From an uncultured Poribacteria bacterium (GTDB lineage Bacteria; Poribacteria; WGA-4E; WGA-3G), in assembly GCA_951813565.1 (NCBI GenBank), contig OX638351.1, forward strand, positions 2,784,001 through 2,848,000: a stretch of 64,000 bases of DNA. The letters are read 5' to 3'. Positions 7,480-49,478 of the stretch are shown piece by piece (positions within the stretch are counted from its first letter, which is position 1; every line of letters begins with the position of its first letter). The position numbers were made by a program, and so were the translations under genes. Below the pieces are notes generated by a model, which saw only the letters and a list, made by a program, of their open reading frames with translations, searched no databases and was not told the origin of the DNA.

Positions 7480-7713
7480 CTTACTTAGATTTCTTTAAAT
7501 GACTATGTCTCTGATTTATTTTATCCTGCGTAATGTAAGATGTCAAGCATCAAATGCAGAATATAAGTTTACGCTATCGAATGTGATTAAAAAGAAAACG
7601 AAGAATATCAAAGAAAGTTGACTCATATAAGTTACTGCATAGATGGTTTTAGGTAATGTGGCTAAAATTTTCTTGTGGGAAGACTTGTAAGCCAAACGAG
7701 TCTACTTAAACTT

Positions 7714-37933: not shown

Positions 37934-38060
37934 AGGTACCCACTACCTAAAGGTAGGGGCTTGTGCTTCCTTGCGACTGCGGTTTTCTCAGAGAGTTGAC
38001 CGTCTTATTGTCGCTCCACTTTAGGCAGCCAAGCCTGCCTGTTTGATATTGATAGCAGCA
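37929..38060 (-). ncRNA. Putative TnpB omega/reRNA scaffold at the element right end
   Basis: Position 3' of tnpB including the right-end hairpin; boundaries inferred from family knowledge. Confidence 0.5.
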
Positions 38061-39133
38061 TTGATGTCTCTGTCGTGGTGTGAACCACATTCGGGACATG
38101 TCCACTGTCTATCTGCGAGAGAGAGTTCTTTGTTATGGTATCCACAATCACTACAAGGTTTTGTTGTTGCTATCCATTGAGAGATTTGCACAAGTTTTTT
38201 GCCGTGCTTCGCACACTTCTGTTCCAATATCTGAAGAAACTGGTAGAAAGAATGGTCAGAAACTTTACGTCCCCATAATCGTTTCATACCGTCAAGGTTC
38301 AGCGTTTCCAAAATGAGTGTGTCAAACTCTACACAAAGTTTTGAGGCAAGTTTCCATTGCCAATCTTCTCTTTGTCGGGCAACTTTTCTGTGTTGCCTTG
38401 CTAAAGCACGGCACGCACGATAATAGTTGTTAGAACCTTTGACTTTACGACTGAGTGCTTTGTTGAGAGATCGCAACGTGTTGAGTGATTGTTTGAAAAA
38501 CTGCGGAGATTGTCCCTTGTTGCCTTCGTCGCTTGTGAGGAACGTTTTGTTTCCGTAATCAAATCCTGCGCTCTTACCCGTCTTGGGTTTGGGTTCGGAA
38601 TCCTCAACATTCTCGCACGAAAAGCATATCCAATAGTCACCGCACCTGTCACGTTTGATCGTGATCGTCTTGATGACACCTTTGATTTCACGGTGTTTGT
38701 GAAAGGAAAACCATGTATCTATACAGTTGATTTTGATACGGTTATCTTCAAGTTTGTAGCCCGCTTGTGTGAAGGTCATGGAGTTGTATTTGTGTCTCGG
38801 TTTGATTTTCGGTCTACCCACTTTACGCGTTGTTTTGCCCGCTTTTCGGTCTTCGATATTCTCAAAGAAAGCGTCTTGAGATTTACCATAACGTAGGACA
38901 ACGTCTTGAACAACTTGACTCGGCAAGTCCGCCCAGTGTGGTTTAGTTGTTTTTTTGAGTTTCGCAACATGTGCCTTCAGACGATACGCAGACAAATTTT
39001 TGCCGAACATGCGATAATACCTACGTGCCAAACGCATGATATGTAGATGGATTTCCCACATATCATCAAGCATATTGCCGAGTTTGATTGTGTTAGATTG
39101 GTGTTGAAGTTTGAACTTGTGAGATTTTCTCAT
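38021..39133 (-). CDS. tnpB: RNA-guided endonuclease TnpB
   Basis: RuvC-I GFDYG, RuvC-II LETL, zinc finger CSDCG...CPECG, RuvC-III RDINAAINI. Confidence 0.93.
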   Translation of the reverse strand: MRKSHKFKLQHQSNTIKLGNMLDDMWEIHLHIMRLARRYYRMFGKNLSAYRLKAHVAKLKKTTKPHWADLPSQVVQDVVLRYGKSQDAFFENIEDRKAGKTTRKVGRPKIKPRHKYNSMTFTQAGYKLEDNRIKINCIDTWFSFHKHREIKGVIKTITIKRDRCGDYWICFSCENVEDSEPKPKTGKSAGFDYGNKTFLTSDEGNKGQSPQFFKQSLNTLRSLNKALSRKVKGSNNYYRACRALARQHRKVARQREDWQWKLASKLCVEFDTLILETLNLDGMKRLWGRKVSDHSFYQFLQILEQKCAKHGKKLVQISQWIATTKPCSDCGYHNKELSLADRQWTCPECGSHHDRDINAAINIKQAGLAA

Positions 39134-39230: not shown

Positions 39231-40320
39231 CAGGACTTACGCAGTCTTGAAGATTATTGAAGGATTTGAGAGTTGATGTCGTAAATAATCGTCCAATAAG
39301 CTATCTTTAAGCTCATAAATTGTTCTACCAACTGCACGGGCAGTGCGTGTCAAACAGACCCATACTTGAAAACAACACGCAATATGATTTCTTTGCGCAC
39401 GCAACTTGCGACATTGACATTTACCAATACCAGTGACTTGTTTGATCTCACGATGAAATTGCTCAATCTTCCAACGCACTTTACATTCTTGGATTGTGGC
39501 ATCCGCATCTGATTGAGATAAATCGTTTGTAGCGATATATACCTTGTGTCCGTTAGAGGACGCTATCCGGAACAACTTCACTTGATGTCCATTTGGAAAC
39601 TTATTGATGTGCACGCGTTTTCCTTGTCGTATTTCTGTTTGGGTCCAACATAAATCTTGGACTTGTTGGTGTTGTTCAACACCATCCGTATCATTGACAA
39701 GACGATTACGCTTGAGAGGCACATAGTAAATCTTGGAAAGTTTTTCAATCGCTTTGATGACTTTCATTGACGCATACCAAGCATCCATGAGCACAGTCCG
39801 AAACGGGAGTTGTTTTTTCAAGTAGACATTGTGCAACATTTCCAGTAAATGGTCTATTTTGGTTTTACCATCATGATCTTTGTCAAAAATACGATAATCA
39901 ATGATCCAATATTCTTGCGTCTTTGGATTGACATAAAGACACGTGACAATACCGATGCCTACAACGACTTTTTTGTCGCTACCACTCCATTGAGAACGAA
40001 GGGCTTCAATCTCTTTGGCATGGAGTTTAGGAAGCACAAAATCATCAAAAACTATGTATCCTTCATCATCATACTCAATGTCATCCTTTACGGATTGCCA
40101 GAGTTCGCTTGAAGAAATGTTTTCATTTCTCAAGAAACGATTGAGTTGATCGTGGCTCCATTTTTCTGTCTGAGCAGCAAAGTAGGTTTGTGTCCAATTC
40201 GTGAAACTTGCTATCAAAAACTGACAATAATCGGAAAATAGGTTTTCCTTCTTTTGAGAGTGGGAAAATGTAATCATAATAGAATAGTATACACCATTTT
40301 ATAAAAATGCGTAAGTCCTG
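39231..40320 (-). mobile_element. IS701-like insertion sequence, 1090 bp
   Basis: 13-bp TIR CAGGACTTACGCA/TGCGTAAGTCCTG; 7-bp TSD AGTATAT at 39224-39230 and 40321-40327. Confidence 0.88.
39237..40277 (-). CDS. DDE transposase (IS701-like)
   Basis: IVFDD, IDYRIF..DGKTK, VLMDAWYA, RWKIEQFHREIKQ. Confidence 0.9.
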   Translation of the reverse strand: MITFSHSQKKENLFSDYCQFLIASFTNWTQTYFAAQTEKWSHDQLNRFLRNENISSSELWQSVKDDIEYDDEGYIVFDDFVLPKLHAKEIEALRSQWSGSDKKVVVGIGIVTCLYVNPKTQEYWIIDYRIFDKDHDGKTKIDHLLEMLHNVYLKKQLPFRTVLMDAWYASMKVIKAIEKLSKIYYVPLKRNRLVNDTDGVEQHQQVQDLCWTQTEIRQGKRVHINKFPNGHQVKLFRIASSNGHKVYIATNDLSQSDADATIQECKVRWKIEQFHREIKQVTGIGKCQCRKLRAQRNHIACCFQVWVCLTRTARAVGRTIYELKDSLLDDYLRHQLSNPSIIFKTA

Positions 40321-43523: not shown

Positions 43524-43669
43524 ATTTTTTATTGCAAGTTTCGGGAACTTGATTCTCCTTACTTTATGACTATGAAATTACAAACCACATCGCGTAACAT
43601 GCTTATTTCAGTAAAATTTAGATAATTCCACTATTGCATAAACTATATTTCTCAGAAAAAGTTACAAAA

Positions 43670-43724
43670 ATTACAACACTTCTATATTCAAGTCACTATT
43701 TCTTGAATATAGAAGTGTTGTAAT
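43670..43724. terminator. Perfect 23-bp inverted repeat downstream of the dehydrogenase gene
   Basis: ATTACAACACTTCTATATTCAAG-tcactattt-CTTGAATATAGAAGTGTTGTAAT. Confidence 0.55.
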
Positions 43725-43738
43725 ATATGGCTTCTATT

Positions 43739-44755
43739 TTAGGGATGTAACGCTGTTTTAACACCGCGTTGCGCGATAGCGTTATCAAAAGCTTCTAAAC
43801 CTTGTGAAATGGAAAACTGATCGGTTAGCAAAGGTTTGAAATTGATTGCTTCTTGTAGTAGGAGCTGGCGGGATTCTTGAAGGCTTGCTCGGGAAAATGC
43901 CCACGAAGCCATCAGTTTGTGTCCGGTATAGTGAAATTCTTCTAAGTTTATGCGAAGTTCCTCACCTTCCGGCGCAAGACCGAAAAAGTTGATACAACCG
44001 CCTTTGCGTATAACCTGAAAAGCGAGGTTAATCACTGACGTTTTATTTGTCGTAGCGGAGATGACGGTATCAACACCGCCGTGGGTGATTTCATGGAGAT
44101 GTGCAACATTGTCAGGAGAAATATCAAAAGCGGCATCGGCCCCGACAGTTTCTGCGACAGATCTGCGGTAGGGTAGAGGGTCCAGAACGTAGGTTGCTAA
44201 ACCTGCTCGTTTCGTCAATTGGGTGAACATCAACCCGATGGGACCAGCACCGAGGATGGCAACAGTGTTTTGGAAAATGGTTTCTTGCATCGCATTTAGG
44301 CAGCAGCCTAACGGTTCAAGGAAAAGTAGTTCTTCTGGTGGGATGGTGTCTGGCACTCGGATGAGTTTGCCCGTGTCTATGCCGTGTTTCGGCATCCGCA
44401 TGTATTCGGCGTAGCCGCCATCAATGTCGTGTCCGATACCTTCAATCGTATCGCAGTATTTGTCTTTGTCATTTCGGCAATGCACACAACTCCCGCACGA
44501 AAGCATCGGATTTACGGTGACCCGTTCGCCGACTTTTACTTCCGGATGCCGACTCTCAACGATTACACCTGCGAGTTCATGTCCCATCACAACAGGTGGT
44601 GAATAGTCTGATATATCGCCACGGAGCGCAGCAAGGTCAGATGCGCAGATACCGCACAACTCCATCTTGATAAGCACATCCCCGGCATTGAGTGTGGGAA
44701 TTGGTTTGTCTTGTATGCGTAACTGCTGAACTTTTTCAAAAACGATTGCTTTCAT
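43739..44755 (-). CDS. Zinc-dependent (MDR) alcohol/sugar dehydrogenase
   Basis: CGICASD, GHELAG, CGSCVHC...C, GAGPIG; start MKAIVF at ATG44755, 7 nt after the iscB stop. Confidence 0.92.
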   Translation of the reverse strand: MKAIVFEKVQQLRIQDKPIPTLNAGDVLIKMELCGICASDLAALRGDISDYSPPVVMGHELAGVIVESRHPEVKVGERVTVNPMLSCGSCVHCRNDKDKYCDTIEGIGHDIDGGYAEYMRMPKHGIDTGKLIRVPDTIPPEELLFLEPLGCCLNAMQETIFQNTVAILGAGPIGLMFTQLTKRAGLATYVLDPLPYRRSVAETVGADAAFDISPDNVAHLHEITHGGVDTVISATTNKTSVINLAFQVIRKGGCINFFGLAPEGEELRINLEEFHYTGHKLMASWAFSRASLQESRQLLLQEAINFKPLLTDQFSISQGLEAFDNAIAQRGVKTALHP

Positions 44756-44762
44756 ATACGTT

Positions 44763-46319
44763 CTACGCAACCAATGGGCAGTTTACGATGCTATAACTAT
44801 ATCCATCGCGCTTTTGAATTCTTCGGATTTCGGTAATATTTCCAGATTTTCTCGAATCTTTCTCTTCAGGTGCAAAGTATTCTACGCGAAGTTTACGAGG
44901 TTTGCCTACTGCGGTTTTATCAAAACAGTTGATTATCCCTTTCCATTTCCGATCTCGCTTTGTTATCTCAACGTAGTCAAACTTCGCAAAGCCATTTACA
45001 TGCGAAACCTTAGTTGATGGTTTGATGAAACCGGGTGCTTTCATGTCAAATATCTTGCCTACATTGTCGCGTCTACCATATCCTTTAGCTTCAATGATAG
45101 CAACTTGCAGCGACTTAGCTCGTTTCGGAACAATCGCAACAGACGCAGCATCATAATAATGCGTTTTCGGCAATCTGGCAAGATTCCGATGATGTGCTGT
45201 TTTTCCACCAGTGCCACTTATTATTGGGAGCCCTGTTGTTTTGAGTGTCTCAAACAGTTTCCACCGAATAGTGTTGATTGCTGCAGCATCAGAAAGACCC
45301 TTTTCAGATTTTCGGGCTGCTGCTTGGACCTTCTTTGCAAAATCAGTACCAAGCTTTTCTTCCAACTCGGCTCCGTGCAGTTTACCTTTCTTTTCGTTGC
45401 AGTCTTTACATGCCATCGTCAAGTTGCTCGGACGGTTATCTTCACGAACGGCTTTAGGTGCGATGTGTTCTACTTCTAAATGACGTTTGCCTTTTCCACA
45501 ATAAGCGCATTTTCTGCCAGTCAGTTCTAAAAGATATTCGCGTATCTCACGTCCCCATAAAGTTCCTTGTTGATATTCAATGCCATGTATACCAGGATTT
45601 TCCATCAACTGCATATCAAATTTCACCGTCTCAATTGCCAATTGTGTAATCGGGTAAATCTTACATAACCGTCGGGTCCAGGTCTCTAAATTGAAAACAC
45701 GGGACATCAAACTCGGTGCCACCCAACCATTATCGGCGACCCGTTGATGCACAACGCGAATGCGTCGCCAGCGTTTCTTTTGACGCTTGTTCGTTTTGGT
45801 GTCAGGTAAACGCTCCCAACGATACCGCTCGTCTAAAAACATCGCTTTTGACACGCGATTCAAGTCATTTTGAGATTTACTGGAATCCATTCCCTCTGGC
45901 ACTGAAGCACGTTCATATCTCCATCCGTTTTCTGTAAGAATTGGCACTTGACGTTTCCGATTTGCCCACCGAGCAGGACGATACCGTAGATTACGAGTTC
46001 TACGTCCTCTACGAAAGCCCGAACGTTTTTGAAGATTTCTTTTGATTTGCTGCCCACGGTGATGTAATTCCGCAGCATAGACTATATCCCCAGATTCAGA
46101 CACAATGGCGATTCCACTGATGCGTGATCCCGGGTCCCAACTCAACGTATACGGTTTTGTGACAATTTCCGATTCTGGAACTGCTTTCTTAAGAATAATC
46201 GTAAACGGGTATTTTCGCCATATTGCTGCTTCACCGCGTTTCAGTAGACGACGTGCTACAGCAGGATGACAAGGTTCTAAAGGGTTTTTGTCTGTATCAA
46301 TAACTGCTACTTTTGACAT
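44763..46319 (-). CDS. iscB: CRISPR-associated IscB (OMEGA RNA-guided RuvC+HNH nuclease) with REC-position insertion
   Basis: PLMP-like N-terminus (NPLEPCHPAVARRLLK...PFTI), RuvC-I WDPG (D62), bridge helix RRGRRTRNLRYR, RuvC-II IETVKFD (E230), CAYC...EH(285)I...NL..AC..CN HNH, RuvC-III THYYDA. Confidence 0.93.
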   Translation of the reverse strand: MSKVAVIDTDKNPLEPCHPAVARRLLKRGEAAIWRKYPFTIILKKAVPESEIVTKPYTLSWDPGSRISGIAIVSESGDIVYAAELHHRGQQIKRNLQKRSGFRRGRRTRNLRYRPARWANRKRQVPILTENGWRYERASVPEGMDSSKSQNDLNRVSKAMFLDERYRWERLPDTKTNKRQKKRWRRIRVVHQRVADNGWVAPSLMSRVFNLETWTRRLCKIYPITQLAIETVKFDMQLMENPGIHGIEYQQGTLWGREIREYLLELTGRKCAYCGKGKRHLEVEHIAPKAVREDNRPSNLTMACKDCNEKKGKLHGAELEEKLGTDFAKKVQAAARKSEKGLSDAAAINTIRWKLFETLKTTGLPIISGTGGKTAHHRNLARLPKTHYYDAASVAIVPKRAKSLQVAIIEAKGYGRRDNVGKIFDMKAPGFIKPSTKVSHVNGFAKFDYVEITKRDRKWKGIINCFDKTAVGKPRKLRVEYFAPEEKDSRKSGNITEIRRIQKRDGYSYSIVNCPLVA

Positions 46320-46329
46320 TTTTTATCCG

Positions 46330-46580
46330 TGGATGTTGAGATACCCGAAAGCACCTCAACATCCAAAGCTCGCCTTGCGGCGGTAATGTGAGCCTCGTCA
46401 ATGTTATTTCTGCTTTATAACAGGGTTGACAGCGTATTGTAAAGCTGTTTACATTGCCCCGACAGCGCTCCCGGCTGGCTCATGTACCTGGAGGTGTCTA
46501 TATCAGAAATAACGGATTTAATGTTTCCAACCCATAAAGGCTTGACTAGATACCACTTGGGCATGTTTTTTGTTGCAATT
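46330..46580 (-). ncRNA. omegaRNA/HEARO-like scaffold with a 5' tracrRNA-like anti-repeat
   Basis: Minus strand has anti-repeat TTGCAACAAAAAACATGCCCAAGTGGTATC, then HEARO-like motifs (CCGTTATTTCTG...GACACC...TAAACAG...CAGAAATAACATTGACGAGG...CATTACCGCCGCAAGGCG) and a terminal UUCG-capped hairpin. Confidence 0.82.
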
Positions 46581-46673
46581 TTTGCCGTCAACCTCCCAGC
46601 AAAAATGCAAGATTGGAGGTCGACTGCAAACTCTTAAGACTGACGCTTGACGCAGCTTGACTTTAAGTATAGG

Positions 46674-48445
46674 GTTGCAACTCAAACATGCCCAAGCGAT
46701 AACTGCTATCTTCAGCAAGTATCTGACCTTCCTTTTGGGCAAGTTGCAACTCAAACATGCCCAAGCGATAACCTTCAAACGTGTGCGAAAGGCGTTCAGC
46801 ATCTTTTTCGTTGCAACTCAAACATGCCCAAGCGATAACTCTGGTCTGCTGCTTCGTTTATAATGTCCTCAATAGCGTTGCAACTCAAACATGCCCAAGC
46901 GATAACTTATTTAAACGCATATCAAAAATGATAGCACTAAAAGTTGCAACTCAAACATGCCCAAGCGATAACTTGTTCAGCGGATATATCATCACTGGAT
47001 TTGACGCGTTGCAACTCAAACATGCCCAAGCGATAACACTATTCTATGAGACATTTGAGATAAAGCAAAAATTGTTGCAACTCAAACATGCCCAAGCGAT
47101 AACGTTTACCCCTCCGTTTTGCCTCACCAGTGACATCTACCGGTTGCAACTCAAACATGCCCAAGCGATAACTATGTGATGCCGCAATCTCCCAAGATGT
47201 TGGACTTAAGTTGCAACTCAAACATGCCCAAGCGATAACTTTCGATCCTGAAATACCATATGCTTGGGAGCGTGAGTTGCAACTCAAACATGCCCAAGCG
47301 ATAACGCGCGGACCGGCTTTGGTGCGTTCCGCTAATCCGTGATGTTGCAACTCAAACATGCCCAAGCGATAACTTCGGCACATACAACCCTGTAGCACCA
47401 CCTGTCTCGCGTTGCAACTCAAACATGCCCAAGCGATAACACAGAAGGCTTAGACGATTACATGAAACTCAAAAGTCGGTTGCAACTCAAACATGCCCAA
47501 GCGATAACCGAGAAGTAACGTGTGTTATCATTTTCATCTTTCCAGTTGCAACTCAAACATGCCCAAGCGATAACATGTAAAACACCCTTGACTGTCTCAG
47601 GCGTAACCAAGTTGCAACTCAAACATGCCCAAGCGATAACGAAGTACCAAGACCACGCTGCGCAAGATTGCCAGCAAAACGTTGCAACTCAAACATGCCC
47701 AAGCGATAACTTCGGCTGGGGTGATGAAGTATATCTTCAAGGAGTTAGTTGCAACTCAAACATGCCCAAGCGATAACATGGGCAATCGCAGTATCATCAA
47801 AACACTTGAGTTTGTTGCAACTCAAACATGCCCAAGCGATAACTCAGCTGTCCTTTTTCGTTTGCGATGTTGATGCCAAGTTGCAACTCAAACATGCCCA
47901 AGCGATAACGAAAATCGGGGATATAGTCGTAGCGCAAACAGAAGCGTTGCAACTCAAACATGCCCAAGCGATAACTGAGATTCTTTCTTGGGCAAATGAT
48001 GATAAAAATTCGGTTGCAACTCAAACATGCCCAAGCGATAACTCTACGGAGTCTGCACCTATAAATTGTGCGTAACGGTTGCAACTCAAACATGCCCAAG
48101 CGATAACAAAGATCGTCACCACAGGATTTAACAGCAAGGTCAAGGTTGCAACTCAAACATGCCCAAGCGATAACGTATTGGATTGCTCACGGGATTGTCC
48201 GATGCAACGCAGGTTGCAACTCAAACATGCCCAAGCGATAACCACCTCTGCTTTCACTGTAATTATTTTCTGTTTGGTGCGTTGCAACTCAAACATGCCC
48301 AAGCGATAACTCAAAACTTCGTTTAGCGACTTCTTTACTTCAACGCTATGTTGCAACTCAAACATGCCCAAGCGATAACCTATGAAAGCCATCGTTTTGA
48401 AAAAATCCATCAAGTTGCAACGCCAGCACGCTTAAGTGATATAAC
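46674..48445 (-). CRISPR. CRISPR array: 26 identical 30-bp repeats + 1 degenerate repeat, 26 spacers of 34-40 bp
   Basis: Repeat (+) GTTGCAACTCAAACATGCCCAAGCGATAAC from 46674 to 48379; degenerate copy GTTGCAACGCCAGCACGCTTAAGTGATATAAC at 48414-48445; minus orientation inferred from G-U pairing with the anti-repeat. Confidence 0.98.
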
Positions 48446-48449
48446 ATAC

Positions 48450-49478
48450 TTACTCAAACTCATAAGGCACTGTTTCGGACTGATGTGTCTTTGAGGATTT
48501 TTCTGCCAAATCCATGATGGCAATGACACGGCGAGCGGACTCAGGTGTCACGAGCAATGGGGTGCCATCGTTCAAATGCGCAACTATATTTTCATAGTAT
48601 CTGGGTCCGGGTCTTCCGTGATGACCTACTTTCTGTTCCTTCGGATGCCCTTCAACTTCGGATAAAACATGATATTGTCCGCCTTCAGAAACAATAGATC
48701 CGTGTGAACCGAGCATTTTCCATTTCGGTCCGCCGACCTTCGCGATGTTAGACATCTGGATGTTTGCTGACGCACCATCCGCAACAAATTCCCCTTCTGC
48801 AAATCGAATAATAGCTTGCACGTGGTCTTCGTTGGTAATGTCTTTCCAAACAAGGTTCGGCTGAAAGAAGCCGGTGACGTTAATCATGGGTGCTTCAAGA
48901 ATGTTAAGCAGCCAGTCAAGGAAGTGTGCGCCCCAGTCATAGAATTGTCCGCCAGAAATGGCTTTGACGCTGCGCCACCAATTCGGGTTCGGTCTGCCGT
49001 AGCCGCCACCCCACATCTCGGCACTATAGACTTTTCCGATGACACCAGACTGAACAAGTTCGCGGAGCGTCCAGAAGTCTGCGTCCCAACGGCGGTTGTG
49101 GTGAACTGATAGCATCACATCATTTTCTTTTGCAGCGGTAATCATTTCCGTTGCTTCTGCAATTGTGACGCACATCGGTTTTTCAACGACAACGTGTTTA
49201 CCTGCATTGTGGGCTGCCACAGTCGGATCGCAGTGTAGACTGTGCGGCAGGACGTTCGCGACGAGATCAACATCTTCGTCTGCTACGAGGTCTTCAACGG
49301 AGTTGTAAGTTCGGACGTCGGGAAAATCCTGTTTGGCTGCCTTTGTCCGCTCTGGATCAATGTCGCACACTGCAACGCATGTGATGCCTTCTGTGCCTTG
49401 CATCATATTTGCGTGTGCTTTACCCATATTAAATGCTGCCCCATAACCGAGAACAGCACCTTTAATAATATCTGCCAT
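48450..49478 (-). CDS. Gfo/Idh/MocA family oxidoreductase
   Basis: AVLGYG, GKHVVVEKPM, HHNRRWD, GG.FYDWGAHFLD. Confidence 0.92.
   Translation of the reverse strand: MADIIKGAVLGYGAAFNMGKAHANMMQGTEGITCVAVCDIDPERTKAAKQDFPDVRTYNSVEDLVADEDVDLVANVLPHSLHCDPTVAAHNAGKHVVVEKPMCVTIAEATEMITAAKENDVMLSVHHNRRWDADFWTLRELVQSGVIGKVYSAEMWGGGYGRPNPNWWRSVKAISGGQFYDWGAHFLDWLLNILEAPMINVTGFFQPNLVWKDITNEDHVQAIIRFAEGEFVADGASANIQMSNIAKVGGPKWKMLGSHGSIVSEGGQYHVLSEVEGHPKEQKVGHHGRPGPRYYENIVAHLNDGTPLLVTPESARRVIAIMDLAEKSSKTHQSETVPYEFE

Follow-up and report, generated by a model that had tools for sequence, protein, structure and literature searches.

The locus described here raises the question of how a module that carries an iscB nuclease gene and a CRISPR array, and no transposase gene, came to lie between two host genes. 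It is part of a 64,000-nucleotide stretch (the window) from a Poribacteria bacterium of a sponge (contig OX638351.1 of assembly GCA_951813565.1); the runs that hold window DNA include sponge metagenomes. A single 5.43-Mb contig contains the window, and the genome has one iscB gene and one array of the module repeat. The module is an apparently new form of the CRISPR-associated IscB systems, distinguished by a leader that it borrowed from type I-B, by the NGG motif predicted for its nuclease and by a spacer that fits its own empty site. Our best explanation for its position, about which we are evenly divided, is that it homes through this spacer (spacer 26), by a cut in the empty allele and repair from a filled copy.

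Between its flanks the module begins with a 518-aa iscB gene, which a noncoding gap of 354 nt separates from the array; there 26 repeats alternate with 26 spacers of 34-40 nt, and a degenerate repeat closes the series. The only long open reading frame inside it is iscB, and both cas1 and Tn7-like transposase genes are absent from the module. The features are as follows.

44757-48450, minus strand: whole module, replacing 79 bp of host intergenic DNA without duplication (44756 joined to 48451 in runs X4, X8 and X9)
44763-46319, minus strand: iscB, 518 aa (Pfam RRXRR/PLMP, split RuvC, HNH; NCBIfam guided_IscB)
46320-46578, minus strand: omegaRNA/tracrRNA-like scaffold (Rfam HEARO match and fold z)
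46549-46578, minus strand: anti-repeat, pairing with the minus-strand repeat
46579-46673, plus strand: type I-B-like CRISPR leader, with an inverted-repeat motif at 46584-46624 that ends 49 bp before repeat 1
46674-48379, minus strand: CRISPR array of 26 identical 30-nt repeats with spacers of 35-40 nt, guides read on the minus strand
46907-46942, minus strand: spacer 4, 36/36 match to phage DNA
47306-47343, minus strand: spacer 10, its 3' 19 nt matching a TIR-domain gene in G102, then TGG
48380-48413, minus strand: spacer 26 (the oldest), a match to the first part of the adjoining dehydrogenase gene at the left junction
48414-48445, minus strand: degenerate terminal repeat at the trailer end (alignment to the repeat)
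44724-44757, plus strand: remnant protospacer of spacer 26, then ACG (module DNA), not NGG
44756-44759, plus strand: left ATAC copy, host sequence at 44756 only
48446-48449, plus strand: right ATAC copy, not in the empty allele
43739-44755, minus strand: host Zn-dependent dehydrogenase gene, 338 aa, downstream flank (Pfam ADH_N, ADH_zinc_N)
48450-49478, minus strand: host Gfo/Idh/MocA oxidoreductase gene, 342 aa, upstream flank (Pfam)

The extent of the module was established from an empty allele. Four of the 12 runs that hold part of the window were aligned to it, and contigs in three of the four connect 44756 with 48451 through a stretch of 79 different letters. The X8 record (5508 nt) differs at only 6 positions over 2257 nt of left flank and at 5 over 1166 nt of right flank, and because the differences are so few we take the empty-allele contigs to come from the same species. 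Contigs of X2 and X4 span the filled left junction with no differences, and X4 holds both alleles. The module is therefore 44757-48450, replaces 79 bp and is polymorphic between filled and empty. In X2 the depth of the module and its near flanks was about twice that of the outer flanks; two lineages sharing the tract are possible, and contig depth, which is not copy number, was not used. Bins 47840-48373 have little or no coverage in X4, a hole that proves nothing.

The same two genes are neighbours at all 29 loci of relatives (L004-L032, from the 29 best among 58 genomes with a match, the window's own not counted), separated by a gap of 75-515 bp that in most cases contains a small hairpin. 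A locus of genome G023 (L188) is 94-96% identical to window positions 48447-48900, at the 3' end of the oxidoreductase gene, and 91% identical to 44701-44756, the first 56 bp of the dehydrogenase gene, with 71-81% deeper in. This pattern suggests an older recombination tract around the insertion site. A 28-bp inverted repeat (93%) lies at window positions 43665-43729, directly 3' of the dehydrogenase stop codon.

These alleles bear on the initial annotation, which had described a module with GTT...AAC ends, inserted cleanly into a plausible native TAAGTATATG junction between ATAC direct repeats, and had suggested, as one of two routes, an integrase acting on repeat-like ends. Much of what it reported is present in the sequence: ATAC at both positions, the left copy running into GTT and the right one preceded by AAC, the stop codon of iscB (44763-44765) 3 nt from 44760, and a degenerate repeat at 48414-48445 on the right. 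Removal of the letters 44760-48449 does yield TAAGTATATG. The check it proposed, adjacency of the flanking genes in relatives, holds at all 29 loci, but the empty site differs from TAAGTATATG, in this species by 79 other bases, which is an outcome that the annotation had itself named as refuting it, and neither a 4-bp gap nor the TAAGTATATG junction occurs in any of the 29 relatives; the readings as target-site duplication and integrase product are thus unsupported. It follows from the joint of 44756 to 48451 that one of the four bases of the left ATAC belongs to the host and none of the right. In a simulation of 20,000 trials two random points had a 4-mer in common within a few bases in 34% of cases, so that the match needs no mechanism, and we judge it to be chance, as the initial annotation had allowed. 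An integrase also fits poorly with the homologous modules, which do not have GTT...AAC in common and vary in their iscB tails and array-side ends, and we consider this origin highly implausible. The suggestion of homing by recombination agrees with our best reading, on another basis: a spacer directed at the junction (48380-48413), which that account omitted.

The annotation was right that the module is an insertion with no tnpA and no IS200/605 ends, for both of its ends fold at only -3 to -5 kcal/mol. An ancestral IscB element could nevertheless have been inserted by TnpA 3' of TTCAT, as ISGst5 is, with its hairpin ends and 79 bp of flank lost later. The left junction does read TTCAT and then element, which is the ISGst5 geometry, TTCAT is described as the motif of the ISGst5 IscB (10.1101/2023.03.14.532601), and the genome contains 10 Y1 transposase matches. 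However, TTCAT is here merely the start codon plus AA in reverse, homologous modules lie at flanks without TTCAT, among the flanks seen, and the motif of the clade is NGG rather than ATGAA. The IS605 copies of the host have GC-rich end hairpins, which the module lacks, and follow TTAG or TTAA; there is a single iscB copy in the genome, and insertion by TnpA is described as deleting nothing (10.1101/2023.03.14.532601). We regard this history as improbable. An IS200/IS605 transposon in its present form was rejected: there are no subterminal hairpins, a 79-bp replacement is not scarless, and a guide derived from the flank would not match the empty site, where four bases that precede the terminal repeat and the final stop-codon base are both absent. 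Elsewhere in the window, 38021-39133 and 39237-40277 hold a tnpB copy of an IS605 family that has more than 20 copies in the genome; a DDE transposase gene displaces its left end.

What connects the module with its site is spacer 26, which lies beside the degenerate repeat and is the reverse complement of the start of the dehydrogenase gene. Its 3' 19 nt (minus strand) fit the junction with 2 mismatches, compared with 7-10 for the other 25 spacers, and 2 mismatches were reached by 1 of 4000 shuffled arrays. Three of the 29 relatives match it at 19/19 positions, two of them followed by AGG, and NGG follows the target site in 13 of these 29 empty loci; in the filled allele the target is followed by ACG, derived from the module, and no NGG. 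Relative to its own genome the spacer reads GCC for GCA and ATC for GTT. Since these variants occur in other species, it was likely taken from the allele of another lineage. A target at the edge of the empty allele that is lost in the filled one, as expected of a homing element, was seen against the alleles of other species and may also apply within the same species. Cas9 and IscB cut about 3 nt from their motif, and at that distance a cut guided by spacer 26 would lie no more than 2 nt from the left junction. The spacer has a 1-base gap about 20 nt from its 3' end; because the guide that IscB effectively uses is given as about 13-16 nt long (PMC13180657), this indel is outside the region checked. 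No other spacer of the window array strongly matches the host genome, and the idea that the array records earlier insertion sites is unsupported.

A target over a start codon could also mean that IscB binds there without cutting and tunes expression of the dehydrogenase. The imperfect match and the position of the spacer beside the degenerate repeat would suit such a role. It is at odds with the loss of NGG after the target in the filled allele, with the intact catalytic residues and with the absence of such a spacer elsewhere, and we think it more doubtful still than insertion by TnpA.

The motif itself comes from phage matches across the clade. We searched 149 module spacers, leaving out one that contains a REP-like repeat, against 674 kb of phage-like loci; 16 matched, of which 14 had no more than 7 mismatches and 11 no more than 3. 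On the iscB strand the protospacers of these last 11 run on into NGG in nine cases and into NAG in two, and the opposite side shows no consensus. The protospacer matches with their 3' flanks fix the guide strand and show that the arrays record phages, and we infer that the spacers serve as 5' guides with a predicted 3' NGG target-adjacent motif. Spacer 4 matches G148:C3 at 36/36 positions, then TGC, and an IMG/VR locus (L400), then TGG. One spacer end is common to G150 and G173 and found, among five genomes, only in their arrays; it has a loose phage match. A search of IMG/VR for modules carried by phages did not find the module repeat. Across the clade the chief role of the module is likely phage defence. 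The match of spacer 10 (3' 19 nt and TGG) is to a CAP12/Pycsar TIR-domain gene just upstream of the CRISPR-IscB array in L170 (G102). The L172 array holds a spacer with a REP-like repeat (52 nt) that is present at many chromosomal sites, and the L174 array a spacer containing a 317-nt insertion.

How such an array acquires spacers is suggested by the noncoding gap. Upstream of iscB the Rfam HEARO family matches 46624-46383 with 56 bits (E 7.6e-10, below the gathering threshold of 83), and 46320-46600 folds with a z-score of -2.6. The array lies upstream of iscB and its repeat is complementary to the anti-repeat; their duplex, at -38.3 kcal/mol, is the best among 12 tracr regions. In the folded RNA the leader is the loop closed by this repeat:anti-repeat stem, the first stem of the RNA. 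Positions 46583-46644 match at 78% the leader of the host's other 30-nt-repeat array, which is of type I-B and adjoins cas2, cas1b and cas4. Between the end of the leader motif and repeat 1 there are 49 bp in 10 of 12 modules (67 bp in one; in one the motif was not found), whereas in type I-B leaders this distance is 89-92 bp in 15 of 16 (79 bp in one). The module motif is therefore about 42 bp nearer the repeat, or about four helical turns, and the extra stretch in the I-B leaders contains promoter-like sequence. A promoter scan, with the trailer end left out, gave nothing decisive.

Because a type I-B leader motif sits inside the module RNA, we consider it likely that the host's type I-B Cas1-Cas2-Cas4 supplies spacers in trans at the leader end, and 46674 would then mark the side on which new spacers come in. 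Spacer 26 is the oldest, to judge by the leader on the iscB side and the degenerate repeats on the opposite side of the array. A cas1b match above the cut-off is present in eight of the 11 module-bearing genomes (the window's and seven of ten others), including all with at least 13 repeats. In type I-F, Cas2 is described as being bound by leader inverted repeats (10.1101/2023.05.26.542337), and the same may apply in type I-B. One type I-B system is described as adapting from a CCN motif (PMC8406132); as the module array is read backwards relative to type I, a 5' CCN acquisition motif would become, inverted, a 3' NGG for IscB. We are fairly confident of the defence and borrowed-leader parts of our account, which are firmer than the homing part. 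The CRISPR loci of the host lie at G000:C1:1198128-1215000 and 3989000-3996451. Its type I-B locus is accompanied by a type III-A module, the Csm2 of which has a cold-shock domain; a second cas1 is next to a gene for a reverse transcriptase and to a long array.

In the homing mechanism that we propose, the array would be transcribed toward iscB and each repeat would pair with the anti-repeat to give spacer-first guides. Guided by spacer 26, IscB would cleave an empty allele at the codon where the dehydrogenase begins, and once the break was mended from a filled copy the module would be installed or retained; the filled allele, having lost its NGG, would be spared. Break-triggered reinstallation of this kind is described for TnpB and IscB elements (10.1101/2023.03.14.532601; 10.1101/2025.02.20.638934). 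We observed the replacement, the filled/empty polymorphism, the match of spacer and junction, the loss of NGG, the phage spacers of the clade with their NGG, and the leader motif. In favour of homing, the spacer carries variants seen in other species and yet the module sits at its target. It looks like a by-product at this one locus. Capture by end joining was rejected, as a Ku match is absent from the genome (95% complete).

Several observations weigh against our account. On the side of homing, the evidence comes from a single locus, at which the empty allele persists in three of the four runs and occurs together with the filled one in X4, and there is no donor-type flank on either side of the module. 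The empty allele of the same species mismatches spacer 26 at 11 nt from the motif, where HEARO nucleases are described as tolerating few mismatches (PMC9755519); an NGG beside its target is a prediction, the motif evidence coming from alleles of other species. A spacer against the module's own flank occurs in none of the 11 other module arrays, the spacers of other arrays match none of the empty-site loci that were fetched for the G150 group, G152 and G090 (the relatives of G102 and G106 lay too far off for this comparison), and an intact close iscB was found in none of 39 other species of the genus. The module in G090 also replaced a short intergenic hairpin without a site-matching spacer, so that replacement needs no site spacer. 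For defence and leader, the cognate repeat:anti-repeat pair ranks first in just four of 12 modules, and three short-array genomes have no intact cas1b (none in G150 and G160, a fragment in G173). Only three of 318 host I-B spacers, by which the I-B motif might be read, match phage-like loci, one of them within 7 mismatches. The NGG motif is based mostly on IscBs 51-53% identical to that of the window, which itself contributes one full phage match (TGG/TGC).

Some of these points would suit the main rival, a defence module with an autoimmunity scar. Such a module would have arrived between the two genes in some different way and taken its first spacer from the neighbouring chromosome; the survivors would have lost the 79 bp that bore the NGG, together with whatever element end was there, and spacer 26 would now be inert, the allele moving by ordinary recombination only. 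The persistence of the empty allele, the seed mismatch to the allele of this species and the lack of a site spacer at 11 other loci all agree with this, and type I-B adaptation is described as drawing spacers from genome regions with free ends (PMC8406132). However, spacer 26 fits the alleles of other species better, and the filled and empty alleles of its own agree up to 44756. Host DNA was also lost on both sides, including the last base of the upstream stop codon. A scar of this kind seems to us rather unlikely, though well within consideration.

We also asked what kind of effector the module encodes. The protein scores 356.6 bits against NCBIfam guided_IscB (cut-off 175) and has a PLMP/RRXRR N-terminus and a split RuvC with inserted HNH. 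The catalytic residues D62, E230, H285, N299, N308, H387 and D390 are all present and invariant across 15 aligned sequences. By its domain order and its 518 aa, within the 400-600 aa range of the class, it is an IscB, and its intact RuvC and HNH residues predict RNA-guided DNA cleavage. The nearest solved sequence is TbaIscB (E 4e-35), while II-D-like Cas9 chains match at E 4e-11 or weaker. A type II-D Cas9, of about 700 aa with a REC insertion, was accordingly rejected. A CRISPR-associated transposon was rejected for want of Tn7-like transposase genes. The closest homologs (P0002-P0007) are 72-90% identical, and their differing C-terminal tails hint at different insertion sites. The C-terminal tails of the IscB homologs P0128, P0129, P0131 and P0137 resemble read-through into a REP-like repeat, as if the module ended there.

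Among 176 genomes of the phylum, 19 besides the window's gave an iscB match with an E-value no higher than 1e-40. Twenty loci were fetched. In 11 of them an array lies upstream of iscB, its 30-nt repeats being of related sequence and 4-28 in number, and these modules occupy several unrelated sites; three loci have one or two repeats and similar upstream RNA, one contig is too short, and five have no such array. In a FastTree tree, which gives local supports only, the window protein falls in a group of 71 rows (local support 99), and all eight members of known context have arrays. When contigs of metagenomes and genomes were scanned, the IscBs that turned up were distant, apart from one close locus (L133). 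L179 (G112:C202) is a module of four repeats whose neighbour, in convergent orientation, is a 341-aa RRXRR protein. Its contig, which also has genes for Rep3, ParA and a tyrosine integrase, is a possible carrier of the module. L177 and L178 (G112:C178) and L181 (G099) have one or two repeats with leader-like RNA, L177 being flanked by two similar sequences, and are possibly early or reduced stages.

Solo repeats were also seen. A single module repeat with one mismatch, without an iscB match in the fetched stretch, occurs at L226:4516-4545 (G035) and L232:8062-8091 (G129); it lies at the same site in two genera and is likely a remnant on a horizontally shared stretch. G022 has a short iscB 3' fragment 2.4 kb from a module-oriented solo repeat (L227:5142-5195 and 7645-7673), and G012 a further solo repeat (L228:7174-7203); these are decayed modules in the same genus. 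L180:11404-12175 and L182 (oriented coordinates) hold IscB homologs by arrays with unrelated 37-nt repeats, one of them downstream of the gene.

How does the module compare with known systems? Homing endonuclease genes lie at their own cut site, and the filled allele is immune. The module likewise sits at its own target in a filled allele predicted to be immune; unlike such genes it is RNA-guided and intergenic, with no intron or intein. In CRISPR-associated transposons the homing spacer adjoins an atypical repeat. The module differs from these in having no Tns proteins, a nuclease predicted to be of the active type, and no duplication. It resembles them in that a spacer directed at the site stands at the distal end of the array, beside a diverged repeat (on homing spacers, PMC11300857).

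Arrays are reported to have joined IscBs several times (PMC10691335, PMC10734277, PMC11610941). DelIscB, from Delaware Bay, is described as a CRISPR-associated IscB with array, repeat, anti-repeat and an NAC motif (PMC12660989), and with it the module has in common an upstream array, a repeat and anti-repeat in the noncoding RNA and, going by that description, no cas1 or cas2. Compared with DelIscB by its description, our modules have NGG as their predicted motif in place of NAC, arrays that match phages and reach 28 repeats, an RNA stem that encloses a leader of type I-B and, here, a spacer aimed at the insertion site. With IS200/IS605 OMEGA elements that carry IscB, such as ISGst5, the module shares the nuclease family, the HEARO scaffold and the logic of cutting the empty allele (10.1101/2023.03.14.532601). 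Unlike ISGst5 elements as described there, it has a CRISPR spacer as guide rather than the flank, no end hairpins, 79 bp replaced and the opposite target strand. Type II-D Cas9 loci are similar in their small effector, in their array and tracrRNA, and in usually lacking adaptation genes, and one phage-targeting spacer is reported for them (PMC10734277, PMC9755519, as far as described); in contrast to them, the effector of the module has 518 aa and scores as IscB. Our literature search found nothing on IscB in Poribacteria, and no paper that by its title or the opening of its abstract treats a leader of type I-B inside the RNA of an IscB, or a spacer of such an array that is directed at the site; an earlier listing of the clade is possible.

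How a transposon nuclease first gained an array that learns is an open question in the origin of Cas9. The routes reviewed for Cas12 are duplication of an omegaRNA segment and insertion beside an existing array (PMC10691335). Our loci suggest a third, in which the leader and adaptation genes of another system are borrowed, and this route also predicts the motif of the nuclease. They span stages from a single repeat with leader (L177, L178) to 28 repeats. Taking the parts together, we tentatively read the Poribacteria IscB clade as a living intermediate between transposon IscB and CRISPR-Cas9, with a promoter-less I-B leader in the first stem of its omegaRNA, spacers fed in trans, a Cas9-like NGG that arises from CCN through backward reading of the array, and mobility regained at this site through homing that an acquired spacer steers without a transposase; we would put this joint reading somewhat below an even chance. 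A 518-aa IscB with a predicted NGG is a potential compact editor, as IscB motifs are usually long. If spacer 26 does drive homing, then an adaptive spacer would have turned a defence cassette back into a selfish element without a transposase.

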